A stretch of 64,000 nt of DNA from a virus. Shown here piece by piece: positions 1,667 through 60,639 of this stretch. Every line of letters begins with the position of its first letter. The first letter of the stretch is position 1. Location of the stretch: IMG/VR virus record IMGVR_UViG_3300047548_001261, positions 17,896-81,895 of that record. One strand, given 5' to 3'. Both the position numbers and the translations under genes were made by a program. Under the pieces are notes generated by a model that was not told the origin of the DNA, searched no databases, and was given only the letters and a program-made list of their open reading frames with translations.

Positions 1667-2467
1667 ATGGCCCAATTAGGTGCACCAGTCACTTCAGCAT
1701 TCCAGATCGGAACAGCAGAACTTCGCATTGGGCCAATGTCCAGTGCTGGAAAATTATCTCAAGCCCACTCCATTGGTTTGGTGGACAGCGTAGGGGTTAC
1801 GATCTCGCAAGAGACCAAAGAACTCGAAGGGGGGTTTCCAAAGAACCTCATAGCCTCCGCAGTTACCAAACAGTTGGGGTCTATCAGCGCAACTTTCAGG
1901 GAATATTCCAGAAGAAACTTATCTGTGCTGCTCGGCGCGGGCATCGTTGCCGCAGCCACACCCGTCGCCACCACAATCGCCGCCGACTTGGCTTTGAACG
2001 CTGCCGGTGCGACGCTGGCATCCGGGGTAGGCTTCACTGCCGGCGATATTTGCGTCATTTACCAGACAGGTAAACCCGAGACTGTCTCTATTGTTAAGCT
2101 GCTAACAGTCAGCAGCAACGCAGTTACCTGGACAGCAAACAGTTTGGCTAACGCTTTTACTGCCGCGCAGGGTGCCATTAATTTTTACAAAGCCAATGAA
2201 GTGCCACTGGGCGCTGTAACATCGGTGAACTATTTCTCAGCGACTGCGGTCTGGACTTCGGCTTCAGGTAAACCAGATTTCTTCAACTTTTGGAAAGTTT
2301 CCGTCGGGGGAAACATGAATTTCAAAACTAGTGCAGACGACTTCGCGTCTTCTGACATGGAGTTGAAGGTCCTGTTACCGTCAGCCGCAGACATTGCCGG
2401 CGACTTGGCCCCTGTTGCGTCGATCATCGCTACCAACCCAATGGGGTTGTTGATCCAGTCATCATAA
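1667..2467 (+). CDS. Major tail (tube) protein
   Basis: GAGGA RBS then MAQLGAPVTSAFQIGTAELRIG; Ala/Gly/Thr-rich beta protein upstream of the tape measure gene. Confidence 0.7.
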   Translation: MAQLGAPVTSAFQIGTAELRIGPMSSAGKLSQAHSIGLVDSVGVTISQETKELEGGFPKNLIASAVTKQLGSISATFREYSRRNLSVLLGAGIVAAATPVATTIAADLALNAAGATLASGVGFTAGDICVIYQTGKPETVSIVKLLTVSSNAVTWTANSLANAFTAAQGAINFYKANEVPLGAVTSVNYFSATAVWTSASGKPDFFNFWKVSVGGNMNFKTSADDFASSDMELKVLLPSAADIAGDLAPVASIIATNPMGLLIQSS

Positions 2468-2483
2468 ACGTTCAAATAATGGT

Positions 2484-2512
2484 GTATAACGCCAAAATTA
2501 AACAGCCCGCCA
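2484..2512 (-). other. Possible half attC relic (L' and R' boxes)
   Basis: Minus strand reads GGGCT-GTTTAAT-tttggc-GTTATAC, resembling the right arms of the attC sites at 19-22 kb. Confidence 0.35.
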
Positions 2513-2541
2513 GAAACTGAACTTAAATTAGGTACAATGAG

Positions 2542-2694
2542 ATGAAAAAGCTACGAATTATCTGGTGGAACATCAAGTCAACCGCCGCATTAAAACTATA
2601 CGACTTTCTGTCATTTATCGGCTTGTGTGAGGGCGACTTTGGCAAGTATGCGGTTGGTGTGTTGGCGAAGCTTGAGGTCGAAGACCCCAGATGA
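2542..2694 (+). CDS. Small hypothetical protein (50 aa)
   Basis: MKKLRIIWWNIKSTAALKLYDFLSFIGLCEGDFGKYAVGVLAKLEVEDPR, followed by a terminator. Confidence 0.4.
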   Translation: MKKLRIIWWNIKSTAALKLYDFLSFIGLCEGDFGKYAVGVLAKLEVEDPR

Positions 2695-2750
2695 TAGCCA
2701 CATGATCCAAGCGACGTAAAAAATTTAAAACTCCTCCTGTTGGACCTCTT

Positions 2751-2783
2751 GGCCCGGTTGTTCCCCTCAACCGGGCCTTTTTT
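2751..2783 (+). terminator. Rho-independent terminator
   Basis: GGCCCGGTTG-ttcccct-CAACCGGGCC followed by a T run. Confidence 0.8.
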
Positions 2784-2856
2784 ATGCCTGTTGAAAAATA
2801 CGCTGAAAGGTTTAAACTGCATCAGACACCCCTCCCCAAATTAATTGAGCAAATCA

Positions 2857-5800
2857 ATGGCCAACGAAGCACAAATAGATTTAGCCGTCGACGTAAATGT
2901 CCAGATAAAAGAACTGAAACTGGACACAGAGAAGCTAACCAGCAAAATCAAAGCCGCAGTCGGTAGTTTAAAAGATATCCCGATAAGCCCTAAGCTGGCT
3001 ACAGATTTCAAAGAGTTGGATAAAGACGCCGCGAACCTTAGTAAAAAAGTCCAGGATGCGTTTGCGAAAATATCTAAACAAACCCCAGTCGCCCTTAACC
3101 TTGCGGAAAAACTTCGGAAAGAATTTCTATCCGGCGCAAATGCGGTGGACAAAGACGGTAATATTATCGGTAAGCAGCTACGAAGATTCATGTTGCAACA
3201 GCTGGAGTCGGTGCACGCATACGCGAATCTAGATAAGAAAAAGACATTGTGGGGGCAATTTGTCGATATAGAGGGGCAAAACATAGCTACTGCTAAGAAG
3301 ATGCTGACGGACATGTCTACCAAGATGTCTGCGGAGGCGTCTAAGGTTACTGTCGCCCAGACACAAATGGCGCGGAGCCTGAATCAAGCTAGCGAATCAC
3401 TAAAGCTGGGTATCGGTGCCGCAACAAACGGCATTTCTTCACAAGTATCCAAAACCATTTCCGATGTTAACTCGTTGGCGGAGGCTTTCAAATTCCTTGG
3501 GTTAAAGAATAAAGACAGGCAACTCCTCCTCGACCCTACGCCAACAGCGGAAAACTATGGTCGGTTGGTAAAAGTCCTGGAAGCGGCCAGAGAAAGGTAC
3601 TTCATTCTTGCTGCACAAGTCCATAACAATAAGAAGGCAGAAGAAGAGTTGGGGGTGTCCTCCGAGCAGGTTGCTGTTCACTTGGCAAAGGTTCGGGACG
3701 AGATCGACCGACAGCTCCCCAAGTACCGTGCCTTGGCGGAGGAGCAGGCACGGAAGGTAAAGTTGGACAAGGAGTTAGCGAACCAACAAGCAAGGCTACA
3801 GAAAGCCTTGTCAACAGTTACCGACTCCGGCACCAAGCCTTTGCGAGACCAGATCGAAGCCTATAACGAACTTCTCAGGATTCAAAGGGCGATCCGGGCA
3901 AACTCCGGCACCGACCTGGGGGTTAAATCTACCAGGGACACTCTTGCCCAGCTGAAACTTCAACTCAAGGCTACCGAGCAGATCGCCACCGCACAATCCT
4001 TAGTGGATAGAAGTGCCGACCTTGGGACTAGGGAACAAGCCGCTGCCAGAAGTAAACTCAACAACTTGTTGATCCAGTACAAGGACTTGTTGGCTGGGGA
4101 CACTTCTGCGGAAGTCTCCGCGAGTAAGCAGGCTTTAGCAAGACTTGAAGAAAGATTGGCCAAGGAAAAGCAAATCGCGGCTGCGGAAGAACGTTTGGTT
4201 CAACTCACCGCCGCTAGAGCGAAAAGCAGCCTGTCAGACACCCAAACCCTCTTGCGGCTGAAGAAGGAAGAGTTCGACGTCACCCTTGCCTTGGAGAAAG
4301 CAAAAGGGCTTGGTAGGGACGGCTCCGCACAGGTTCTTAGAGAAGTCGAAGCGCTCAAGCAAAGACTGGCTACTGAGGAAAAAGAACTATCCACCCTGAC
4401 CAAGCTGAAAGAAGCCAACAAAGAGCTTTACTTTAGGAGGAGCGCTACCGCCCCTTCAGCCTTAAATACCCAAAGGCTTGGGTCGGGTGCTCCAGCGCAG
4501 GCAATGGGCGCACAGGAGTTTGCCAAGCTGAAATCATCTGTAGAAGCGTATTCTAAGGCAATTCAGCAAGCCCAGGACGGCGTGGCTCAGATGTCAGCGC
4601 GCGGACTTCATTACGCCCTCGCGCTGACGGCTGCGTGGGAAAAGGACCGGGAGACTTTACTCGGAGTTATTGCCGTTCAAGAGCAACTTCAAAAAGCACA
4701 GGCCGCCACTCAACGAGTAGGCACTGCAAAAGGCAACGATGCCGCTAAGCTTATCGCCATGCGGGAAGAGGTTACTGCCCACCAAAGAATCGTTGATATT
4801 TTAGGTGTACAAGGTAGGGCACAGTCTGCCGTTGACCAAGCGACACTTGCCCACTCTCGTGCTAGGGTGTCTGCCTTACAAGGCGACATCGCAATGATTC
4901 GGCAACAAGTCAATGAGACAAACAGGCTGGGGGAGTCATACACCTCCCTGTCGTCTGCTTTCAGGTCGTTCTTGCGGTATGCCGTGGAGATGGCAGCCTT
5001 CTATCAAGGGTTGTCTGCCTTCCAGGCTGCGGCTAAATCAGTTGTGGACCTTGAAGACGCCCTAAAAGGTGTCCAAGCCGTCGCCCGCGCAACTGACACG
5101 GAAATGGAGAAGGTTGCTGCATCGGTAAAACGTGTCGCCATTGATACCGAGTTCTCGACCAACGACATAGCCGGTGCGGCCCAAACCTTATCCCAGGCGG
5201 GTGTTGGTATCGGCGAGATCGGGGAAGCCTTAGATGCAACCAGCTTGGCTGCATCTGCTACTGCGACATCGCTAGCAGTCACAGCGGACGTCTTGACAAC
5301 GATGCACAACGTCTTTAAAGACATGAGCTTCACAGAGATCGCTGATCAGATGACGTCAACGATCAACTTGTCAAAACTGACGGGGGCAGAGCTAAGCACG
5401 ATCCTGAGCAGGGCTGTGGAGGTCTCAGATTCATTCCACATCATTCCGGCACAGATGAACGCAGCCTTTGCTGTGCTGAGAAACGCAGGTATCAAGGCAA
5501 GTACGATCTCCACAGGGTATAGGGAATCCTTGCTGGAACTGTTCGCGCCTGACGCCAAGACACTTAGCTTCCTTGAGAAGAGGTATGCAGAGCTTGGGCA
5601 AACCTTATCGCAAGGAGCAATCGCGGAGTTGTTCCAAGGGTTTGCAAACTCCGCTGACCCTATTAGCGCAGTTACAGCAGAGTTGGATAAGCTTGGGTTC
5701 GCCACATCCGCCTCATCAGACTTTGCTCGTGTCTACAGTGTTCGGGCAAAGAACGTCCTGGACGTTTTAGTTAAGCAACGTGGTGAGTACGTAAATTTAA

Positions 5801-17394: not shown

Positions 17395-19268
17395 ATCGGT
17401 CTTGGACGCATAAGAATATTGCGAGGAGTATTCAGTTTAGTTCGAAAGGGGTCCTTCTTTGGCCCACAAGTGACGACGCACCGAACGGGTGGGGAGAACC
17501 TTTTGATACGATTACTGGTACGATAGGGGGGCCGAACCCAAACGTCTTACTGACATACACAGGGCCTACGGTAGGTATTAAACGAGGAGTCAAAAGGTCG
17601 CAGGCTGGTAACTGTTACTGGCGCGGCCCGCAAGGCAGAGTTATCTCTTGGCAAGGCCCTTGGGGCTTTCAAGTCGAATCCCCTGCACACTACTTCGGTA
17701 CACCGTCGTACTCGTCCTCGTACGAAATAGCTCTGGCTGCAAGGGCTGGCGCTGCTCTATCCTCCATCGGGTACACTCAGACTACATCTTATATCCCGAT
17801 AAACCCTTCTAACCCAACAGGCCCAGGTACATGGCTTATCCACGGGTCTCGGTTTTCCACAAAAATTTTCAAAACTGGTAAATTATTTGCCACCGCGCCA
17901 AATAAAATTCTAGGGGCTGCGGAATTAAATGGGGGGATTATAGCCATCTTAGTCGACCAGACGATCCGGTATAAAAAAGGTCCGGCGGATTGGGTAACTA
18001 TAGGGACTTTAACAGACCCAACTGTCACCGATCCGGCTAAAACACTTTTGCCCTACTTAGGTATATTCTCCTTTGATGCCGACGGGTTGCACGCTATCGC
18101 TATCCGATCTGTCCTTTGCCGGGACAACCTTAACCCGAATTACGCAACGAACCACATAGAGAAAGTCCTGACTAGGGTGTCGGTGTCCCTTGATGCAAAT
18201 GGAAACCTAAGCACTTCCGTTTCACACACTGCCACAGGGGCTTTAGCGCTTATATCGACATTTCACTCGGTCAGTACTTATACCCCACCACCGCCCCCGT
18301 ATACAGACGGTGGATCAGGGAGTTATTCAGACACAACAACGTACTCGTCAGAGGGCGAAACTGTTGTTGCAGCAGGATTTTACGGCAATACAGAGGTCGT
18401 CTTGTCGGCTAAGGCTCACGAAACTTCCCAAATATGGTCCACCTCATCTTCTGGGTACCGTTATGGGGATGGAGGGGAGAACGGGGAAGGGTTATTATCG
18501 CACTCATACACTGAATCGGGGAGTAATAAAGTCGGATTGTATAACGGCGAGGACTTATTGGTTGATTTGTTTGTCAGCACTAAAACTACGTCTTCTTCTA
18601 GCAGTGAGCAATCACATTGGGGTGAGCGTAGGGGCAGCGATTCTGCGTCTGGTGGTTCAACGTCTTCAACTACTTCTTCTACAGAGTCATCTTCTTTACT
18701 ATTCGCAGATGTTTCTGTAAGTCTTCCGGAACTCTGTCTTGTTAAGGAAGTTTCGTACTCCTCGTCAGAAAATTCAGGCTCCTTCGAGGTCTCCGTCGTG
18801 GTTAATACCACCGAAAGTACCTCTTCCTCCACAGCGTCTCATACAAATTCCGTCATTAACCCTAATGTATCCTTCCCTGTAGATCAGAGAGGGCCTATCA
18901 CAACAACAAGTACTGGGCATCTCGAAACCCTTGCAAACATCGGGTTCAATTCAGCAGGTAACTATGAAACCACTAACACGAATAGAGAATACAATGTCGT
19001 AGGGGCCAATCACTTTAGGAGTTACCACCCAACGGCGGGGTATGTAGATATATTTCCCGTCTGTTACGGGGTTGTTGACCCCGTTTCCGGGTTTTGGGCT
19101 ACTGTTCACTACCTGTATACAGTGAATTCCGGAACTGCAGACCTTAGTGTTGTAGAGACGACGACTGCGCAACTACCGAATGGGTTAACCCCAGAAAGTT
19201 TTCTGGGGTTAACTGGAGACAACCAAGCACTTGGCAATCTTCCTAGCAAGGGGGTTTACTTACTTTAA
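17391..19268 (+). CDS. Putative tail / receptor-binding protein, Ser/Thr-rich C-terminal half
   Basis: 625 aa, last gene of the + strand tail operon. Confidence 0.6.
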   Translation: MNRSWTHKNIARSIQFSSKGVLLWPTSDDAPNGWGEPFDTITGTIGGPNPNVLLTYTGPTVGIKRGVKRSQAGNCYWRGPQGRVISWQGPWGFQVESPAHYFGTPSYSSSYEIALAARAGAALSSIGYTQTTSYIPINPSNPTGPGTWLIHGSRFSTKIFKTGKLFATAPNKILGAAELNGGIIAILVDQTIRYKKGPADWVTIGTLTDPTVTDPAKTLLPYLGIFSFDADGLHAIAIRSVLCRDNLNPNYATNHIEKVLTRVSVSLDANGNLSTSVSHTATGALALISTFHSVSTYTPPPPPYTDGGSGSYSDTTTYSSEGETVVAAGFYGNTEVVLSAKAHETSQIWSTSSSGYRYGDGGENGEGLLSHSYTESGSNKVGLYNGEDLLVDLFVSTKTTSSSSSEQSHWGERRGSDSASGGSTSSTTSSTESSSLLFADVSVSLPELCLVKEVSYSSSENSGSFEVSVVVNTTESTSSSTASHTNSVINPNVSFPVDQRGPITTTSTGHLETLANIGFNSAGNYETTNTNREYNVVGANHFRSYHPTAGYVDIFPVCYGVVDPVSGFWATVHYLYTVNSGTADLSVVETTTAQLPNGLTPESFLGLTGDNQALGNLPSKGVYLL

Positions 19269-19353
19269 GTTCCAGCGGAGCCGCGTCCGCTGGGTTGGTC
19301 GTGTTTCTGGAAGTCCAGTTCAGAGCGCACCGACCCTTAACGTGGCGTTATAC
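19269..19353 (+). other. attC site 1 (R'' missing)
   Basis: L'' GTTCCAGC at 19269 ... L' CCTTAAC-gtggc-R' GTTATAC (19347-19353). Confidence 0.7.
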
Positions 19354-19573
19354 AGCAATTTCCAGCGTCGCATTCCAAAAGTCCCGCCCCAAAGGCGCAA
19401 TCATGGCAATGCGGCTCTCCATCGTCATTAAAAATTCCGTCTTCCTCGCAATTTCCAGTTGGCTCGTCACACTTACAACAAAGTTGCCGCGTTCCAGGAT
19501 AATGCGTGGCATTCCATCGCTCATGGCTGCCCTGATCCATAGCGTGTCTTTTTCCACCAGGCCATTCGTTCAT
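19337..19573 (-). CDS. Cassette 1: Cys-rich hypothetical protein (putative Zn finger)
   Basis: MNEWPGGKRHAMDQG...CCKC...CHDC; stop lies inside the attC1 L' box. Confidence 0.7.
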   Translation of the reverse strand: MNEWPGGKRHAMDQGSHERWNATHYPGTRQLCCKCDEPTGNCEEDGIFNDDGEPHCHDCAFGAGLLECDAGNCCITPR

Positions 19574-19586
19574 TTTTTGTTCCAGT

Positions 19587-19683
19587 GCATAACTCTTAGT
19601 TCAAGCGGACAATCCGCCATTTAACGCATTTGCGTGGTTAAATTTCAGTGTGTGGCGGCTTGCCACTTAACACGGCGTTATGC
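19587..19683 (+). other. attC site 2
   Basis: GCATAAC-tctta-GTTCAAGC...ACTTAAC-acggc-GTTATGC, 97 bp. Confidence 0.9.
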
Positions 19684-19860
19684 ACCATATCCGCGTTCAA
19701 ATACTTCATATCCAAAATTCTTGCCAAATGGATTATCTTCAGCGCATTCTTTAGCCAATTCAGCCGTCTCGAATTTAGCTATTTCATCGCCGTCTTTATC
19801 CATTAGCGGTGTGTACCCGCCACTTTGTGTTGTTAGCATTACGAAAAAATCGCCTTCCAT
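19678..19860 (-). CDS. Cassette 2: small hypothetical protein
   Basis: GGAG RBS; MEGDFFVMLTTQSGG...; TAA stop is the reverse complement of TTA in R'. Confidence 0.75.
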   Translation of the reverse strand: MEGDFFVMLTTQSGGYTPLMDKDGDEIAKFETAELAKECAEDNPFGKNFGYEVFERGYGA

Positions 19861-19878
19861 TTTTTATCTCCAGTTGAC

Positions 19879-19962
19879 GTATATCCCATCATTCAAGCCG
19901 ACGCTCTAAGCATCAGCTCATTGTTTAGAATCTATCCCGCGAGGCTTAATCTTGCGTTATAC
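19879..19962 (+). other. attC site 3 (degenerate R'')
   Basis: GTATATC-ccatc-ATTCAAGC...GCTTAAT-cttgc-GTTATAC. Confidence 0.8.
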
Positions 19963-20241
19963 GCACTGGGTTTCGTCGATAGCGTAAACACTCACAGGTT
20001 TTTCTCCAAAATGCGGATGTGTGATCCGCTTTTGTGGCGGATACCCTGCCCACTTTCTGCGTATCGTTTTTGACTCATCACCACGCTTCGGGTACCCTAA
20101 TTTTATGTGGATTTCGTCGTATTCAGGCCCACGCAAGCGGCGTTCCCAATAGTCGTTTGTCGCGCGATATTCCTCTGTCTTTTCGCCTTTGGCTATCGCG
20201 TGCCAATATTCAGCCTTTAGATGCAACGTTAAAATACGCAT
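19957..20241 (-). CDS. Cassette 3: ASCH/PUA-like domain protein
   Basis: LTLHLKAEYWHAIAKGEKTEEYR (GxKxxExR ASCH motif); ATG lies inside R'' of attC4 and TAA inside R' of attC3. Confidence 0.8.
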   Translation of the reverse strand: MRILTLHLKAEYWHAIAKGEKTEEYRATNDYWERRLRGPEYDEIHIKLGYPKRGDESKTIRRKWAGYPPQKRITHPHFGEKPVSVYAIDETQCV

Positions 20242-20337
20242 AACTCATAGCTCCAAGCGACGCAGTGCCGCGCCACGGTATTTTATTAAATTTAAGATAA
20301 GTGGCGCGGCACTGCGCTCCTGAGCATGGTGTTACGC
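20238..20337 (+). other. attC site 4
   Basis: GCATAAC-tcata-GCTCCAAG...long stem CGCAGTGCCGCGCCAC / GTGGCGCGGCACTGCG...CCTGAGC-atggt-GTTACGC. Confidence 0.88.
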
Positions 20338-20627
20338 CCTTTTAAAATATGACTCAAATTCCGCTCGCCATGTATCCATGTATCCCTGTATTGCTCATAT
20401 AGCCCTAGCATCCAGTAAATTACATAAGCTTGCTCTTCTTCCGCTTTCTTTGGTATGTCGTGACCTAATTCACGCAAATTGCGCGATAGCTGTCCGCACC
20501 AAAAATTAGGGCGGCCTAGGATAAATCTTGTTTCGTTATTTAGTTCAATTGTTACTTTTTGGCACAACAATCCGGTCAACTCATGCCCACCGACCTGTGG
20601 CGGTTGTGTAGTTTTGGTTTGGTTCAT
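20292..20627 (-). CDS. Cassette 4: hypothetical protein
   Basis: Core RFILGRPNFWCGQL...AEEEQAYVIYWML; starts inside attC5 and ends inside attC4. Confidence 0.7.
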   Translation of the reverse strand: MNQTKTTQPPQVGGHELTGLLCQKVTIELNNETRFILGRPNFWCGQLSRNLRELGHDIPKKAEEEQAYVIYWMLGLYEQYRDTWIHGERNLSHILKGRNTMLRSAVPRHLS

Positions 20628-20684
20628 AGTTCATCGCTCCGTTAAGGTTTCGTGTCCGGCTGGCTGGTTAGCTTTGCGTTAGGT
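20562..20684 (+). other. attC site 5
   Basis: GCACAAC-aatcc-GGTCAACT...GGTTAGC-tttgc-GTTAGGT, 123 bp. Confidence 0.75.
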
Positions 20685-21586
20685 ATACTCCGCAAAATAT
20701 GCGCTATTACATCCACAGTCCAGCCATTTCCTAGCATTCGTTTAGCCTGATTATCAGAGACAGAATCAGTGTACCCCTCTGGCACGGTTTGGAGTCTTTC
20801 GCACTCTCTGCGGGTATAGTGCCTGTACGGCAACCTTCTACCAAATGCGTCAGGATGTCTGCCTATCGGCATTGAAGTAAGTACATTATCTTTTGCCACT
20901 GTCGTTAAACAATTCGATTTATTCCTGTTACTTTCGCGCACCTCTAGGCATTGTGTTATCGGGATAGATTTATTGCAATCATCCCTAACTCCTCTTTCGT
21001 TTAATCGTCGCCCCAGAATAGTCGCTTTGTTTAGATACCTTCCCCGTATCGCGGCCGGTGAAATAACCTCAATATCATCCAAAATATCAACTAGGTTTAT
21101 GTTTTTATTCTCCGGCCGCTCGATATTTGGTATGTTTGTCCAATATAGCCTTACTCTGTTCTGTGCGGAAAGCAGCGAAGAATTTATCTCAATGGGCAAA
21201 ACCCCAAGTTTGTCACTTATTACATCTTGCCACTCCTTTTTCATTCCGACGTTTTCAAGTAGGAAATATTTTGGCTTGCATTCTTTCATCAGCCTAACAA
21301 ATTCAAAGAATAACTTACTACGCGGGTCTTCAAAATTAAGTTGCAGCCCGCTAGATGAGAACCCTTGGCACGGTGACCCTCCTATCAGCAAATCAATCTG
21401 TGGTAAGTCTGCCGCTACGACATTGACCACATTTCCAATCCTGATAATTTCTGGATAATTTGACTCTGATACCTTGATAGCGTGTTTATCTATTTCGCTG
21501 GAATAATAGGCTTTAACTGGTATTCCTGCGCGCTCCAAAGCTATACGGCCACAGGACATTCCGTCAAAAAGCGATAGTACGTTCAT
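20642..21586 (-). CDS. Cassette 5: DNA (cytosine-5)-methyltransferase
   Basis: Motifs I (SLFDGMSCG), IV (GSPCQGFS), VI (ENV), VIII (QNRVRLYW), IX (RECERLQTVP), X (LGNGW). Confidence 0.93.
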   Translation of the reverse strand: MNVLSLFDGMSCGRIALERAGIPVKAYYSSEIDKHAIKVSESNYPEIIRIGNVVNVVAADLPQIDLLIGGSPCQGFSSSGLQLNFEDPRSKLFFEFVRLMKECKPKYFLLENVGMKKEWQDVISDKLGVLPIEINSSLLSAQNRVRLYWTNIPNIERPENKNINLVDILDDIEVISPAAIRGRYLNKATILGRRLNERGVRDDCNKSIPITQCLEVRESNRNKSNCLTTVAKDNVLTSMPIGRHPDAFGRRLPYRHYTRRECERLQTVPEGYTDSVSDNQAKRMLGNGWTVDVIAHILRSIPNAKLTSQPDTKP

Positions 21587-21618
21587 CCAATTTACCTATT
21601 CGTTGTAAGTAAAAACCA

Positions 21619-21682
21619 GCCAGACCCTGCGCTCCAGAGCGACGGCGGAAAAGCACCGCCGCGCCTGAACTATGCGTTGGGC
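21619..21682 (+). other. attC site 6 (degenerate R'')
   Basis: GCCAGAC-cctgc-GCTCCAGA...CGGCGG/CCGCCG stem...CCTGAAC-tatgc-GTTGGGC, 64 bp. Confidence 0.75.
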
Positions 21683-21683
21683 T

Positions 21684-21908
21684 TCAGCCTATATCGTCTA
21701 AGTAATCCTTGAGTGCAACATAAGCTCGCGCAAATGCCTCTTTTCTTGATGGTGAATTGTTAATTTTTATCTCTGCATCGCCCCATTTGCCAGGTTCTTT
21801 GCCTCTTCGGTCATAGACAAAAATATTCCAGTCTGTAATCCCGTTGTGACCAATTTCCAGTGCCAGCATTGATTGCTGGGCATATAAATCTAAAAAATCT
21901 TCTTCCAT
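21684..21908 (-). CDS. Cassette 6: hypothetical protein
   Basis: GAGG RBS; 74 aa filling the space between attC6 and attC7. Confidence 0.75.
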   Translation of the reverse strand: MEEDFLDLYAQQSMLALEIGHNGITDWNIFVYDRRGKEPGKWGDAEIKINNSPSRKEAFARAYVALKDYLDDIG

Positions 21909-21930
21909 ACAAGCCTCTTAATTATCTATA

Positions 21931-22052
21931 GCCCAACAAGTCAGTCAAGCTGGACGGTGCGCCTGTGGCGCGGGTTAAAGTCAGTGTTTCGGTAAGGGCC
22001 AGTGCGCTAATCAGGTTATTCCAGCGCACCGCCCCTTACCTCTGCGTTATGC
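21931..22052 (+). other. attC site 7
   Basis: GCCCAAC-aagtc-AGTCAAGC...CGGTGCGC/GCGCACCG...CCTTACC-tctgc-GTTATGC, 122 bp. Confidence 0.88.
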
Positions 22053-22054
22053 AC

Positions 22055-22228
22055 TTACATGTCCAGCAAGCTGCGCACAACATCAAGCAACGTATCAGCA
22101 ATCTTACCGTCTTTGCCGTAGTCGGCGGCAAGGCGGCGAAGGCGCTTATAGCAAGCTTCGTCAACTGCGTTGTTATCGTCTCTATCTTTCAGCAATTCTT
22201 CAATCAATTCTTCGTCTGTCATGTGCAT
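22055..22228 (-). CDS. Cassette 7: small hypothetical protein
   Basis: MHMTDEELIEELLKDRDD...; first ATG is inside R'' of attC8. Confidence 0.65.
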   Translation of the reverse strand: MHMTDEELIEELLKDRDDNNAVDEACYKRLRRLAADYGKDGKIADTLLDVVRSLLDM

Positions 22229-22321
22229 AACTCTTAGTTCAATCGGACAAGCCGCCATTTAACGCATTTGCGTGGTTAAATTTCAGTGTGTGGCGGCTTG
22301 CCGCTTAACACGGCGTTGGGC
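22225..22321 (+). other. attC site 8 (near-identical to attC2)
   Basis: GCATAAC-tctta-GTTCAATC...GCTTAAC-acggc-GTTGGGC, 97 bp. Confidence 0.9.
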
Positions 22322-22322
22322 C

Positions 22323-22622
22323 CTACCAGCGGCGGATATTCGCAAAATCCCAAAATTGTCGGCGACCCTCAGCATCGGTTGCGTCGCTCCATAGCAAAGC
22401 TATCCGCTGGCCCGTCATTGCCTCGACAACACCGTTAATTAGCCCGAGAGCTCCAACGGCGTATCCGCCGGTTACGCCTAGCTCATCAACCTGCACCGTC
22501 GGGTGATCTGCCAGCGCATGATTACACGGCACGCGGTTGCACATCAGCGCATGAATTGCGTTTCTGTCGTCGTTGTACGCGCCATTTAGTGTGTCGATGG
22601 CTTTTTGTATTTGCGTTGCCAT
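22323..22622 (-). CDS. Cassette 8: hypothetical protein
   Basis: GAGG RBS; NRVPCNHALADHPTVQV...VGALGLING. Confidence 0.75.
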   Translation of the reverse strand: MATQIQKAIDTLNGAYNDDRNAIHALMCNRVPCNHALADHPTVQVDELGVTGGYAVGALGLINGVVEAMTGQRIALLWSDATDAEGRRQFWDFANIRRW

Positions 22623-22637
22623 ATTGGCCTCAATTTT

Positions 22638-22685
22638 GCCTAACGTTACATTCGAGCGGACGCGTGGTAAGCGCCGCTCATTTAC
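22638..22685 (+). other. attC site 9 (R' missing)
   Basis: GCCTAAC-gttac-ATTCGAGC-ggacgcg...gcgcc-GCTCATT, then an HNH remnant with no correctly spaced GTTRRRY. Confidence 0.65.
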
Positions 22686-22819
22686 CCAGCCCCGTTCGCC
22701 TGCACCTGTGAATTCAGGTTAAGGGTGCCTGCTAATCTTCCAGTGAGCTTATTCGTGCCCTGGTTAGCCTTCCAAGTGAACTCGCCGGTTTCCTGCTCGT
22801 AATTTACTAAATCTTTCAT
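22682..22819 (-). pseudogene. N-terminal remnant of an HNH endonuclease
   Basis: MKDLVNYEQETGEFTWK...GRLAG resembles the N-terminus of 57125-57604 (LKELLHYDEETGIFTWK...GQIAG); stops after 45 aa. Confidence 0.65.
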
Positions 22820-24849
22820 AGTTGTATAACATTCTCAGCCACATCATCTTCCCGGTGAGTTACCGTAAGCGACTGGCCACAAAAAGAGTTTAACGCAAGC
22901 ATACATTGCAGACTCACATCCTTATCCATATCGGCGGAAACTTCGTCCAGGATCAGGCAGTCCAGGTTCGTCGTCGATAACCTAACAAGCCCAAGCTTCA
23001 TTCCAAGACCCATCAAAGTTTTCTGCGCACCCGATGCCGACGACTTACTAAACACATGGTCATTCTCTTTATAAGAGATGGCGCCATTGTGGAGCAGCAC
23101 ACTTTGAATATCTCCCTGCGTCGCTGTCTTGGCAAACTCCGAAGCTACAGAGAAGATTACGTCGTTCGCCTCGGAGACAATACTTGCCCTGTGAGTAGAA
23201 AGAACCTGTACAATTTCGGCATAAAGCTGAGCTTTGTCGGAGTTTTCCTTTTCCAGTTCTAGCGCTTTCACATGTTTGGCAAAGGCGTCTTGTGCAGTCC
23301 GTAAAGCTTCCTGGAAAGTTCTTAGCTCAGAGGATGCAGCCTCGAATGCCTTGCGGTTATCGGTAGAGTCCTGACAAACCTTATTGAGTTGCGCCGTTAA
23401 CTCGCTGAGGTTTATCAACCCGCCGGCAGGTGGAGTCAATGCTGCAAACTCCGTCGTTAGCTGGGTAAAGTCGTCGTTCTCTCTCTGGGTCTGCTTATTT
23501 TGCTGGGTTTCCTCAGCGATTTTCTTTGATAATGCACGGGCTTTCGTCGTTAAATCATCAAGATTATGCCCAGGGTTTTTACCTAATGCGTCATTCGCTG
23601 ATGCTAAATCTTTCTTCGCCCTTTCGACCTTTTCCACATAGGATTCGTAAGCGTTGACAAGTTTAGTGTTGGCACGAACCGCTTCGCTTGCTTCAGAAAG
23701 CCTTGCTTTCGCTTCCGCAACCTTGGACTCTAGCCCAGGAATGCTATTTGAAGCCTCTGCCAAAATCTTTTCAAGCGTAGGTAATTCGTGGTAGCCGTCA
23801 TAAGGTCTCTTGCACTCAGGGCAAACAGCATCGTGTACCGCAGACCGAAGCCGCTTAACCTCGTCTTGCTTATCGCGCAAAACACCGTTTGCCGCAGTCA
23901 ACAAACCCCCAAGGTGTGCGGTTTCGTCCACGATTTCTTCAACCTTTTCGACAGGCTCTCTTTCCAACCTCGCGAGGATGTCCTTATAAGTTGAAACCTT
24001 TTCAAACTCCTTATCGTACTTCCGTTGATCTTTCTCTTGTTGATACAGACTAGCAACCTCAGCCTCGTCCTCGACAGTATCGAACAAAGGCTGCAAAGCT
24101 AACCCGTCCAAAGCTTTACGTTTGGTATCGTAAGCGTCCACAGCTTTGTTATGGTTCACTGCTTCCGTCAGCTGTTTCGTCAAGGATGCTGTTTGTGTGT
24201 CACATGCCTCGCTTGCAGCCTTAAGCCCGCTTAGCGCCTTTTCTGTGTCGGATATATCGCTGGCAAAGATGGTCCTGGCGGTAACATTTTCAGCCACATC
24301 GTCGTCGCTAAGAATGTCTGAAGCATAAGCCGTCGCCAAGGTTGTAAAGTTTGCCTCCCCCTTCCTGGCCGCCTTCACAACCTTGTCCAGCACATCCACA
24401 CCAATACAAGACTCGATAAACCGCTGAAGTTCAGACCCCTCCATGTCCAGCAAATGCTGAGGGGACCCTTGCGGGCTCATATAAATTTGATTAAATTTCG
24501 CTTTGGTAATGCCCAACTCTTCAACTATTGCCGCATTGACTGCTGTGTGACCTCTGACGAACGGCTCTGCCGAACCCCTTGCGATGTTACTCTCCTTGGA
24601 CGATCTCGTCACAGTGAGCCCTGAGCTCAGCGTAAGCACGATCTTGAAGTCCTTTGTGCCCCGACGAATTAAGTCTTTGGTGTCGCAAGGGGCGACGCTG
24701 TTACCGAACAGCGCAACATGAATCGCTTGTAACACCGTGGATTTGCCTTGGTAATTCTTGCCTTTGATGAGGTTTGACCCGTCGGCGAAGTCCAAGGACA
24801 ACTCACTGAAGCGTTTAAAATTGGTCAGGTGTAAAGATTTAAGCTTCAT
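22816..24849 (-). CDS. sbcC: SbcC/Rad50-like ATPase (recombination nuclease subunit)
   Basis: LTNFKRF, Walker A GKNYQGKST, coiled coil with CPEC zinc hook, signature SASGAQ, Walker B LILDE. Confidence 0.92.
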   Translation of the reverse strand: MKLKSLHLTNFKRFSELSLDFADGSNLIKGKNYQGKSTVLQAIHVALFGNSVAPCDTKDLIRRGTKDFKIVLTLSSGLTVTRSSKESNIARGSAEPFVRGHTAVNAAIVEELGITKAKFNQIYMSPQGSPQHLLDMEGSELQRFIESCIGVDVLDKVVKAARKGEANFTTLATAYASDILSDDDVAENVTARTIFASDISDTEKALSGLKAASEACDTQTASLTKQLTEAVNHNKAVDAYDTKRKALDGLALQPLFDTVEDEAEVASLYQQEKDQRKYDKEFEKVSTYKDILARLEREPVEKVEEIVDETAHLGGLLTAANGVLRDKQDEVKRLRSAVHDAVCPECKRPYDGYHELPTLEKILAEASNSIPGLESKVAEAKARLSEASEAVRANTKLVNAYESYVEKVERAKKDLASANDALGKNPGHNLDDLTTKARALSKKIAEETQQNKQTQRENDDFTQLTTEFAALTPPAGGLINLSELTAQLNKVCQDSTDNRKAFEAASSELRTFQEALRTAQDAFAKHVKALELEKENSDKAQLYAEIVQVLSTHRASIVSEANDVIFSVASEFAKTATQGDIQSVLLHNGAISYKENDHVFSKSSASGAQKTLMGLGMKLGLVRLSTTNLDCLILDEVSADMDKDVSLQCMLALNSFCGQSLTVTHREDDVAENVIQL

Positions 24850-25867
24850 TTGATTCTTCCAGTAATTGTTTGAATACCTCTTGGGCGTCGGCACTCAAGC
24901 TATCGGCAATCTTTTCGACCCAGTGAAGTTTGGGGCCATCTTCATCCATAATCACGTCTGTCTCAGCTTTCAGGGACCGAGTATTGGGCTTGATTGCGAT
25001 CAAGGTTTCGGACGTTTTATACCACTCGGCAATCCTGGAGTTGATGGCAATGGTCTCACCGATGTCCACGGTGCCGGTTATTTCGATGAACTGTAAAGGG
25101 GCGTCCAGCGGATAGGCAAGGAAATCTTTGTAGTCGAGGGACCTGAACCGACCATCTACCGGCCACACACACTCCTTTGTCCCATCTACGGAAATAAACT
25201 TATCCGTCATCTCCCCAAACGACATCGGTAAGACGGACCCCAACATCGTTACACCTATCATTGGCTCCCGATAATTGTGCTCATGGCCGGAGATGATCGC
25301 GTCGAAATGCTTCATTGCGTGACCGCCGTGCTCGTCAGACATCAGGTGTGCTGCTACATTAGGCCTTAAATAATTTTCCGTCTCTGTCCCAGGTTGGTCG
25401 CCAAAGTTGCAGTGAAGTACCAGGATGTTGTACTTTTCAGTGTTCGGAAAGTTTTTGGCGCTTGCCAGCATCGTATCAAACTTTTCTTGGGTCAACTGGT
25501 GAGGTAGCAGGGTGTACTTTGTGGACTCAGTTTCAAAGAAGTAAGGTTGTTCCCAAGCAATTGTGCAACCGGTTTTGCGAAGTAGATTTACTGCCGATTC
25601 TTTTTCCGTGTTGTTGGATACATCGTGATTCCCTGAAAGGACGACTTCGCATGACGCGGCAAACATGTAACCTTCGACAAAGGTCTCTGAGTTGCAAGAG
25701 AAGCTGTCGAATAAATCCCCAGCCTGGATAATGCTTCCCTTGTACTCTTCGGTAAACCATATTAAAAGGTCTTTCTTGTACTGCGCCCACCGTGCCGCAG
25801 TTTTGGTTGATGTGAAAGGGAAAGGTTTTCCCAAGTGGATGTCGCCGACTATTGTTATGTTATTCAT
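24839..25867 (-). CDS. sbcD: SbcD/Mre11-like metallophosphoesterase nuclease
   Basis: GDIHLG, GDLFD, GNHD, GHEH motifs. Confidence 0.92.
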   Translation of the reverse strand: MNNITIVGDIHLGKPFPFTSTKTAARWAQYKKDLLIWFTEEYKGSIIQAGDLFDSFSCNSETFVEGYMFAASCEVVLSGNHDVSNNTEKESAVNLLRKTGCTIAWEQPYFFETESTKYTLLPHQLTQEKFDTMLASAKNFPNTEKYNILVLHCNFGDQPGTETENYLRPNVAAHLMSDEHGGHAMKHFDAIISGHEHNYREPMIGVTMLGSVLPMSFGEMTDKFISVDGTKECVWPVDGRFRSLDYKDFLAYPLDAPLQFIEITGTVDIGETIAINSRIAEWYKTSETLIAIKPNTRSLKAETDVIMDEDGPKLHWVEKIADSLSADAQEVFKQLLEESNEA

Positions 25868-27147: not shown

Positions 27148-27371
27148 GGGGTGCTAGCCTCGTGTTGGTTGGTGTCTAAGCTGTTGTAAAGCCGTCGATC
27201 AACCGAGTAAGAAGCTGGCTTTAACCTACCCTCTTTTTCCTTGGAGTCTCGGACAGTCTCGGCACCGGCGTTACGGGCCTCGGTGTAACAGGCTTGCTCT
27301 ATGGACAGGCCTTTGAGTTTTGTACCATAACGGTTGTAGAAAGTTACTTGGTAGTTGCCCGTGGTAATCAT
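27144..27371 (-). CDS. Hypothetical protein
   Basis: 75 aa, ATGA overlaps on both sides. Confidence 0.65.
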   Translation of the reverse strand: MITTGNYQVTFYNRYGTKLKGLSIEQACYTEARNAGAETVRDSKEKEGRLKPASYSVDRRLYNSLDTNQHEASTP

Positions 27372-28393
27372 TGTACAAAGTCCCCTGTAGAACCGAACCC
27401 ATTATCACCCCTTTCGGAGTCCTCCAGACTCGCCACCCGTTCATAAAAATCTAAATTAACAGGGATAGTTAGAAGTTGTGCTATTTTTTGACCGATATTT
27501 ACCTCGTAAGCCTTATCTCCTAAGTTATATAGATGAACAAGAACCTCTCCCGTATATCCGCTATCAATACACCCGGCTCCGACCTCTATTTTATGCTTTA
27601 CAGATAACCCGCTTCTTGACCAAATTAGGCCGACGAAGCCATCTGGTACATTGATTTTTATCCCTGTCGAGATTATTTGACTACCTCCAGCCAGTATTGT
27701 TGTCTTGACGCAGGATAATATATCGAGACCCGCATCTAATCTGACATTTTTTGTTAACTGGGAACCAGTAGATTGCCCAGAATCCGCTAGCTTACCTTTT
27801 GCTGACCTAGCAGCATTATGTAAAGCTGTGTGTTCTCCCCTCGTCATAACTTCCAAATTACTTAAGGAATTGTTTAACCTGTTTTCATCGACATGGTGGA
27901 CGTCAAACTCTGGATTTAAATACCAACCCCCTTCTATTTCTTGCAGAAACCTGTATTGGTGTGTAGCCCTTAAGTAATGCTCCATAATCAACCTGTGTAG
28001 GCGTATATCATCGTCGCAAGTCCTATAGGGGTGTGTGTAGTTTTTCACTAAAACGTACCCGTTAGGCCCTACACGAATACCAGACACCCAAGAAGAGTTT
28101 TCAGGGCCTTTTACTCCGAACTGGTGGTTAAGCTCTCCCACCATTCTTTTGCTACGAGCGACCTTACCACAATCATACGAGCAAGTTATGTCACCCGGAT
28201 TTACACGCTTAGCTAAGTGGCTTGGCTTTAAGTGGAAAGGTTTTGCACAAACCGAGCACTGTACGTTGTTAGTCGCCCTGAATCTCACGCCCATACACTC
28301 CTTAGAGCAGCAATGGTGTTTATTATTCTCCATACGCTGTCTGGACAACTCAAAAGGTTTTCCGCAGACTTCGCAGTCAACTATTACTTGCAT
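27368..28393 (-). CDS. dut: Zn-finger/HNH endonuclease - dUTPase fusion
   Basis: N-terminal CxxC pairs, HRLIME and DVHHVDENRLNNSLSNL (HNH); C-terminal trimeric dUTPase motifs DAGLDI, RSGL, GCIDSGYTGE, IAQL, RGDNGFGSTG. Confidence 0.88.
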   Translation of the reverse strand: MQVIVDCEVCGKPFELSRQRMENNKHHCCSKECMGVRFRATNNVQCSVCAKPFHLKPSHLAKRVNPGDITCSYDCGKVARSKRMVGELNHQFGVKGPENSSWVSGIRVGPNGYVLVKNYTHPYRTCDDDIRLHRLIMEHYLRATHQYRFLQEIEGGWYLNPEFDVHHVDENRLNNSLSNLEVMTRGEHTALHNAARSAKGKLADSGQSTGSQLTKNVRLDAGLDILSCVKTTILAGGSQIISTGIKINVPDGFVGLIWSRSGLSVKHKIEVGAGCIDSGYTGEVLVHLYNLGDKAYEVNIGQKIAQLLTIPVNLDFYERVASLEDSERGDNGFGSTGDFVQ

Positions 28394-60580: not shown

Positions 60581-60611
60581 CTTATCTCACTTGTGGGTCA
60601 AATCGGTCTGT

Positions 60612-60639
60612 GGGCGGTCGCCTTACCGTGGCGTTATAT
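60612..60639 (+). other. Half attC relic (L'-R')
   Basis: CCTTACC-gtggc-GTTATAT; 17 of 18 bases match the right arm of attC1. Confidence 0.6.

Follow-up and report, generated by a model that had tools for sequence, protein, structure and literature searches.

The DNA studied here is a 64-kb stretch (the window, to which all positions refer unless another contig is named) that comprises bases 17896-81895 of an 81,895-bp IMG/VR virus record. Between positions 19257 and 22724 it carries a row of hairpin-forming sites resembling the attC recombination sites of integrons, interspersed with eight open reading frames (ORFs) (Table 1). In the canonical cassette layout the ORF lies on the attC top strand and is followed by its attC site. 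This is not found here, as all eight ORFs lie on the bottom strand. An earlier note on this DNA had placed eight ORFs on the minus strand and had read them as a distinct inverted class of cassettes. We confirmed all eight ORFs at the positions it had given and characterized the array by its site polarity, its coding strand, its occurrence elsewhere and its signs of recombination.

Table 1. Features of the array and its surroundings. Positions are those of the window; R1 denotes the score of the attC covariance model, and codon scores are relative to phage genes of the same window.
Feature	Position	Strand	Description
Site A	19257-19353	+	Left array end; R1 17.7 bits; folds
ORF 1	19337-19573	-	78 aa, Cys/His-rich; codon score -0.10
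Site B	19587-19683	+	97 nt; GCATAAC, GTTCAAGC ... ACTTAAC, GTTATGC; R1 50.5 bits
ORF 2	19678-19860	-	60 aa; GGAG Shine-Dalgarno motif; codon score +0.31
Site C	19879-19962	+	R1 26.2 bits
ORF 3	19957-20241	-	94 aa; phrog_625 at 8.3e-31; codon score +0.15
Site D	20238-20337	+	100 nt; 16-bp perfect stem (inverted repeat); R1 21.9 bits; folds
ORF 4	20292-20627	-	111 aa; GGAG motif; codon score +0.07
Possible remnant half-site E	20622-20687	+	GCGTTAGGT; across Dcm stop and ORF 4 start
ORF 5 (Dcm)	20642-21586	-	314 aa; PF00145 at 3.9e-43; TIGR00675 at 2.4e-42; phrog_116
Site F	21619-21682	+	Short; degenerate R'' box; R1 15.7 bits
ORF 6	21684-21908	-	74 aa; AAGAGG Shine-Dalgarno motif; codon score +0.30
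Site G	21931-22052	+	122 nt; R1 21.2 bits
ORF 7	22055-22222	-	55 aa from ATG at 22222; codon score +0.32
Site H	22225-22321	+	R1 49.8 bits
ORF 8	22323-22622	-	99 aa; phrog_21281 at 1.5e-8; codon score +0.18
Site I	22638-22724	+	Right array end; R1 8.8 bits (weak); folds
Cassettes	19348-19677, 19678-19956, 19957-20331, 20332-21676, 21677-22046, 22047-22315, 22316 onward		Top-strand convention
SbcC/Rad50-like and SbcD/Mre11-like genes	22816-25867	-	AAA_15, AAA_23, Metallophos; directly upstream of the array
Giant ORF, 2608 aa	2845-10671	+	Structural arm
Giant ORF, 1599 aa	11651-16450	+	Structural arm

Sites were searched with a polar attC pattern (TAAC, 5 nt, GTTCAAKC, 40-70 nt, CTTAAC, 3 nt, GCGTT), which matches at least 120 stretches in bacterial genomes, including many long arrays of Lysobacterales, Colwellia and other Alteromonadales. 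For scoring we used a covariance model (R1) built from 71 diverse bacterial attC sites aligned on their top strand, from which the window's own sites were excluded. The structure of the model comprises the canonical R-box, L-box and stem pairs as well as two bulges. With filters off and the whole window as target, R1 provided seven plus-strand matches within 19257-22321, with scores between 15.7 and 50.5 bits. Only one other match in the window, at 60584-60639, came near an E-value of 0.1. The inversion would be an artefact if the polarity of the sites had been mis-called or if the true genes lay on the plus strand. Sites of the attC kind are near-palindromic, and the model scores the minus strand as well: its best minus-strand score, 16.0 bits, was obtained at the place of the 50.5-bit plus-strand match. 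The difference of 34 bits between the strands at this site (B) nevertheless speaks for the polarity as called.

The extra bases of the L''/L' boxes on one arm of the hairpin define the bottom strand of an attC site (PMC5027507). In single-strand folds of sites B, C, D and H the 3' arm of the minus strand carried the extra G of the L box (GCTT-G-AAC), which makes minus the bottom strand, i.e. the recombining one, and plus the top strand. At every site the minus strand folded with equal or greater stability than the plus strand (-21.8 versus -17.9 kcal/mol at site B). The purine skew of the sites was weak (GC skew of -0.03 on the plus strand) and thus of no help in deciding the polarity. As an outside check we used the phage TJE1, for which the published, assay-tested bottom strands are the strands that R1 calls bottom. 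The R1 scores, the arm with the extra base and the fold energies thus agree in placing the attC top strand on plus, as the earlier note had proposed, and the model did not assign the sites to the minus strand.

The hairpins themselves were compared in an alignment of 131 viral sites that was fitted to the model. Paired cells made up 90.3% of the alignment versus 73.5% in shuffles, covariation amounted to 0.431 versus at most 0.095 with slid partners, and 17 of the 21 pairs had changed on both sides. Within the window both an R'' box (RYYYAAC) and an R' box (GTTRRRY) are present at sites B, C, D, G and H, while sites A and F have only a good R' and site I only a good R''. The inverse core boxes, the L''/L' extra bases, the match to the covariance model and the compensatory changes expected of attC sites were therefore all found. 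On this sequence evidence the sites at 19257-22321 are true integron attC hairpins with their bottom strand on minus.

Which strand codes was assessed from codon usage, homologues and protein families. Codon scores were positive in seven of the eight minus-strand ORFs, most of which also have a Shine-Dalgarno motif. A homologue of ORF 1, 80% identical in amino acids, lies at L138:473-655 on a 64-kb viral contig, and a homologue of ORF 2, 65% identical, at L067:7387-7551 on a contig binned as Rubrivivax; both are antisense to the adjacent attC site, too. Third codon positions of the minus frame take 17 of the 23 substitutions in the ORF 1 pair and 9 of the 14 in the ORF 2 pair. For the plus-strand ORFs we found no family matches in Pfam or PHROGs, and their codon scores were negative except for one slightly positive value (21965-22234). 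Their weak tblastn matches, which could be taken to favour genes on plus, are shadows at the same places as the minus-frame matches (59% versus 80% and 60% versus 65% identity). The plus-strand ORFs thus do not behave as the conserved genes of the locus. Around the ORF 2 homologue the contig L067 encodes HTH, DUF1643 and unknown proteins.

Searches of the cargo in Pfam, PHROGs and NCBIfam named only Dcm and two unannotated PHROG families; ORF 4 had no match in any of the three. A PDB sequence search, made for ORF 3 alone, returned nothing. By its family matches ORF 5 is a C5 cytosine DNA methyltransferase. Bottom-strand cargo of other viral arrays includes N6_N4_Mtase in four cases and RNA_ligase in one (Pfam), such that the recognised families, in the window as elsewhere, lie on the bottom strand. 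Judged by these sequence features the eight minus-strand ORFs are real genes, and we consider an artefactual inversion to be largely refuted and very improbable.

The genes are fitted closely to the sites. By the top-strand convention a cassette begins with the TT of one R' box and has the G of the following R' box as its last base, and the cassettes delimited in this way are tightly filled: ORFs 6, 7 and 8 stop 1-3 nt inside their own cassette. ORF 2 takes its stop from the TTA in the core (G|TTA) of site B, and ORF 3 from that of site C. ORF 1 spans the G|TT of site A, which supplies its last codons and stop, and site D encodes the last 13 codons and the stop of ORF 4. At the other end of the genes, the ATG of ORF 3 lies within the reverse complement of the R'' box of site D, further in-frame ATGs upstream of ORF 7 fall inside site H, and several Shine-Dalgarno motifs derive from the L'' box or spacer. 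Of the eight cassettes counted in the earlier note, the eight ORFs stood, while R1 did not find the site needed between ORF 4 and Dcm. The model accordingly gives seven cassettes, one of which contains two genes. Sites B and H (19585-19679 and 22223-22317) are 97% identical over 95 nt, yet they serve unrelated genes.

The two ends of the array differ from its interior. Site A has a good 3' half (CTTAAC, GTTATAC) and a weak 5' half that overlaps a hairpin and the stop of the 625-aa tail-side gene. Site I has a good 5' half (GCCTAAC, ATTCGAGC, stem) and a degenerate 3' half. The hairpin in the weak half of site A, at 19272-19293 just past the stop of the 625-aa gene, is a perfect 8-bp GC-rich one (CCAGCGGA / TCCGCTGG) and may be a terminator shared by the two gene blocks that converge here.

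To compare ORF orientation with attC polarity beyond the window, we tabulated bacterial and IMG/VR viral arrays that were detected by the same method. The ORF of a cassette was taken as the longest one, with a 1.3-fold margin and 50% coverage. In bacterial arrays 103 cassettes were top-strand, 14 bottom-strand and 42 ambiguous (88% top among those decided). In viral arrays, with the window excluded, the numbers were 9, 32 and 34 (Fisher test, 1e-14). Taken by the majority within each locus, 25 bacterial loci were top and none bottom, compared to 4 top and 15 bottom among viral contigs (1.7e-8). The phage and bacterial arrays thus have an opposite bias, and the inverted layout recurs across viral arrays, which bears out a distinct class of inverted cassettes. 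The core TTA serves as the stop codon in 17 of 35 inverted viral cassettes, and the median distance between the start codon and the attC edge is 2 nt. TJE1 is canonical while other phage arrays are inverted, so the class is a genuine one that not all phage arrays share.

The core of sites B and H was found in at least 10 other IMG/VR contigs and the general pattern in 44, most of which have R1 arrays. The B-type attC had no match in cultured phage genomes. Viral arrays often sit where two gene blocks converge, and among the genes flanking them are those of a gpA terminase and a tail protein. The proteins flanking the array in the window had no tblastn match in the other viral loci, which indicates that these phages are unrelated rather than close relatives. 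A single ancestral inversion in the relatives of one phage was considered and rejected, since the flanks are unmatched and carry other phage modules. Three short contigs binned as Gottesmanbacteria, Methylobacter and Gallionella (L052, L079 and L081) also carry sites of the B/H type; they are probably phage contigs that were put in bacterial bins.

The complete 81,895-bp genome contains no tyrosine recombinase (PF00589), integron integrase (TIGR02249) or serine recombinase (PF00239). No intI with attI and Pc lies beside the array, such that it is no complete integron. With at least two attC sites of one polarity and no integron integrase nearby, it has the composition of a CALIN (cluster of attC sites lacking an integron integrase). 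Among the 46 viral records with such sites a true integron integrase occurs in one, a 25%-complete, GC-rich fragment, and it occurs in none of the nine array-bearing viral records that are at least 90% complete.

Traces of recombination were sought in the core boxes. If an array was built by exchange at G|TT, an R'' box is expected to fit the preceding site's R' box better than the R' box of its own site. This was found in viral arrays for 48 of 70 pairs, while the own R' fitted better in 11; for bacterial arrays the numbers were 117 versus 8. In the window two such pairs are complementary at every base: the R'' box of site G (GCCCAAC) to the R' box of site F (GTTGGGC), and the R'' box of site H (GCATAAC) to the R' box of site G. 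Single cassettes (ORFs 1 and 2) recur in unrelated contigs with the same geometry. In addition, contigs from a wastewater metagenome of another study match the flanks, with 100% identity over 19200-19271 and about 99% over 22236-22800, and share cassette 7 (ORF 7) at 98% identity. Other DNA replaces cassettes 1-2 as well as Dcm plus ORF 6 in these contigs. The break points fall at or near attC edges; one lies exactly after G19956 in the shared site C, and one contig diverges within 4 nt of the G|TT of half-site E. As far as sequences can tell, the box footprints, the shared cassettes and the wastewater relative indicate turnover of the type produced by an integrase. The tail-side protein of the wastewater relative, on a 21.2-kb contig, is 93% identical to that of the window, and a 53-kb Logan contig encodes one with 86% identity.

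Exchange of genes does not by itself require an integrase. T4-type phages shuffle small genes between promoter and stem-loop repeats. The repeats of the window could accordingly be phage regulatory hairpins of attC-like shape (terminators, RNA-processing sites or translation leaders), the genes being shuffled by phage homologous recombination. The array adjoins recombination genes of the SbcCD type, sites B and H are similar enough to support homologous exchange, and the hairpins sit in mRNA leaders. Such hairpins would, however, hardly reach 50-62 bits on a model derived from bacterial integron sites only, nor would they be expected to preserve R boxes, L boxes and extra bases in the attC arrangement by way of compensatory changes. 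The footprint of box swapping is specific for G|TT and occurs at nearly the bacterial rate, a break point of one relative lies exactly after the core G, and promoter-like sites are not in excess (see below). We therefore regard regulatory hairpins as an unlikely explanation.

The phage genome has direct terminal repeats and is rated complete; sequencing runs place the phage in a freshwater metagenome. Structural-type genes, including the ORFs of 2608, 1599 and 625 aa, run on the plus strand up to 19268. A long minus-strand block extends from about 62.7 kb down to 19.3 kb and encodes PolA, dUTPase, an SbcD/Mre11-like phosphoesterase and an SbcC/Rad50-like ATPase. The array lies at the point where the two blocks converge, i.e. 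at the distal end of the leftward block that runs into it from SbcD and SbcC. Its genes are hence co-directional with the upstream replication arm, as the earlier note had stated. The cumulative GC skew of the window has its maximum at about 17.4 kb and its minimum at about 60.9 kb. The replication arm had no megablast match in cultured phage genomes, a query with SbcC found no relative in viral and metagenome collections, and a query with the 625-aa protein found none in the metagenome collection. The solitary attC-like site at 60584-60639 (plus strand; 15.1 bits, E 0.11) lies where the leftward block has its upstream end and the cumulative GC skew its minimum, and its 3' half (CCTTACC, GTGGC, GTTATAT) resembles sites A and G. 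Within the same block a 341-aa ORF (27368-28393, minus strand) carries an HNH_3 endonuclease motif at residues 162-189 together with a dUTPase domain at its C terminus and may represent a homing-endonuclease fusion or insertion.

This gene layout agrees with expression by read-through, in which the array genes would be transcribed from the leftward operon of SbcCD and replication genes. Promoter-like sites of the sigma-70 type are not in excess in the array (4 found versus 7.3 expected), and the sole terminator-like site on its minus strand falls inside ORF 4; both findings support the read-through proposal. The best promoter-like match of the region, at 21948-21921 on the minus strand (TTGACT, 16 nt, GATAAT; 10/12), lies just upstream of ORF 6, and its -35 box is the reverse complement of the L'' box of site G. 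One sequencing run labelled RNA-Seq is probably DNA and covers just short, diverged pieces of the array.

According to the earlier note the transcript would carry the recombinogenic hairpin. This point concerns RNA, while recombination acts on DNA; what counts instead, we infer, is the position of the bottom strand as the non-template strand of the DNA. Folding of attC is favoured where the bottom strand is the template of the lagging strand (PMC13108822). The corresponding argument of the earlier note is sound in its logic, and the layout fits it, provided that replication forks move with the leftward genes, such that the sense (bottom) strand is the lagging-strand template. The direction of replication is taken here from the GC skew only, which is confounded with transcription and could be produced by transcription alone.

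Read in gene direction, each cassette opens with its own attC and ends at the next G|TT, which makes the attC the 5' leader of the gene. In several cassettes the Shine-Dalgarno motif or the ATG comes from this site, and the stop codon is often the core TTA.

Taken together, we consider with a probability of about 0.72 that the region 19257-22724 is a CALIN in a complete phage of virulent type, with mirror-image cassettes that are swapped by a host integrase and expressed by read-through. The integron integrase of the infected host would act on the bottom strand and exchange the cassettes, and translation would start from signals inside the attC. The inverted layout may persist because the gene then follows phage transcription, with a bottom strand that is at once the sense strand, the non-template strand and, probably, the template of the lagging strand. 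The cargo may serve against host restriction or other defence, as suggested by Dcm in this array and DNA methylases in others. As a whole the interpretation of the earlier note is therefore partly supported.

Several observations weigh against this explanation. In the survey the 34 ambiguous cassettes are a large part of the 75 viral ones, since length was the only criterion in calling ORFs. A single L-box pattern provided the training sites and most of the viral loci, which biases the sample to one attC family, and IMG/VR contigs can include proviruses or bacterial DNA. A Shine-Dalgarno-like motif precedes 13 of 35 inverted viral ORFs and 31 of 103 bacterial top-strand ORFs; with such similar rates the idea of a translation leader is not general. 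Within the window, half-site E has no R1 match and a fold of just -3.5 kcal/mol, i.e. no foldable attC. The half-degenerate sites at both array ends are not predicted by simple insertion of circular cassettes at a secondary site. ORFs 1 and 4 extend past the crossover point into the neighbouring site, such that relocation would alter their C termini. The array may in part be fossilised.

The degenerate ends, the crossing of crossover points by ORFs 1 and 4 and the lack of an integrase in the genome would also be found if a piece of a bacterial integron or CALIN had been gained once by illegitimate recombination, a route of the kind proposed by Qi et al. (PMC9892861). The array would then be a frozen passenger whose orientation is meaningless. 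With bacterial arrays of the same pattern being predominantly top-strand, though, a random piece would not be inverted in eight out of eight genes. The inversion moreover recurs in unrelated phage contigs, the cassettes of ORFs 1 and 2 recur elsewhere in the same geometry, and a close relative has different cassettes between the same flanks. A single frozen acquisition is thus improbable.

Arrays of attC sites without intI, termed phage CALINs, were published for virulent and uncultured phages by Qi et al. 2023 (PMC9892861), and sites of this kind were shown to recombine with IntI1 (PMC9892861). The window array resembles them in lacking intI and in its cargo, since DNA methyltransferases are recurrent there (PMC9892861). 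It differs in size, with 8-9 sites compared to 2-4 (PMC9892861), and in the inversion of every gene; the genes of TJE1, which belongs to the same study, lie on the attC top strand. The strand of the ORFs was not analysed there with respect to attC polarity (PMC9892861). A further phage of that study, MW202573 (Myoviridae sp.; L174), appears to be an inverted example that was previously unremarked: at 2069-3738 R1 places four sites on minus, though the scores are low (12-21 bits), and the annotated genes, among them a SAM methyltransferase, lie without exception on plus. A full-text literature search found no paper that compares ORF strand with attC polarity in phages. Systematic inversion of the genes was likewise absent from the papers searched, while phage attC arrays themselves were already known (PMC9892861).

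With classical integrons (class 1 and sedentary chromosomal) the array shares the attC architecture, the G|TT footprints and compact cassettes of one gene each that lie directly against the R boxes, but it lacks intI, attI and Pc. Since the gene lies on the bottom strand, it comes after the attC in its cassette and not before it. Cassettes with an ORF antisense to the attC polarity are known as reverse-oriented cassettes of chromosomal integrons (PMC13108822). These are chiefly toxin-antitoxin cassettes with their own promoters, which stabilise the array and form a minority within it (PMC13108822); among our decided bacterial cassettes 14 of 117 were of this orientation. The window array, by comparison, is inverted throughout and shows no promoter signal, and its one recognised function is a DNA methylase, the other seven genes having no family function. 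Nivina et al. stated that cassettes whose attC faces the promoter are not seen. This is a different matter, as the sites of the window all have one polarity and it is the genes that are reversed. Isolated cassettes inserted at genomic attG sites (Loot et al.; bioRxiv 10.1101/2022.09.11.507474) reach non-integron DNA through a host integrase that acts in trans. By that route the left junction is expected to lack an attC structure and the right one to have a full attC, and no orientation bias is seen (bioRxiv 10.1101/2022.09.11.507474). The window array, unlike this, has half-sites at both ends and a strong orientation bias.

Integrons are regarded as bacterial devices whose strand selectivity serves to keep the genes facing Pc. 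A recurrent class in phages would mean that the same recombination chemistry serves a second, virus-side pool of genes. More specifically, phages might keep a mirror-image cassette pool of their own, which is moved by a borrowed host integrase, silent when facing Pc and expressed in the phage; we regard this as a tentative idea that falls short of even odds. If true, the inverted cassettes would be silent in a bacterial integron, as their genes are opposed to the attC polarity and would face Pc, and ordinary bacterial cassettes would in turn be silent once a phage array had caught them. Orientation could hence act as an expression barrier between the bacterial and the phage pool. Each phage cassette would bring its own translation leader, and with a recombining strand that is at the same time sense, non-template and lagging-template, the sites would fold more in the single infection cycle that meets an integrase. 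Phage arrays would provide natural test cases for how the direction of replication and transcription controls attC folding. The cassettes mark small mobile accessory genes of phages, here a Dcm methylase and seven orphans, which are likely to take part in the conflict between phage and host.

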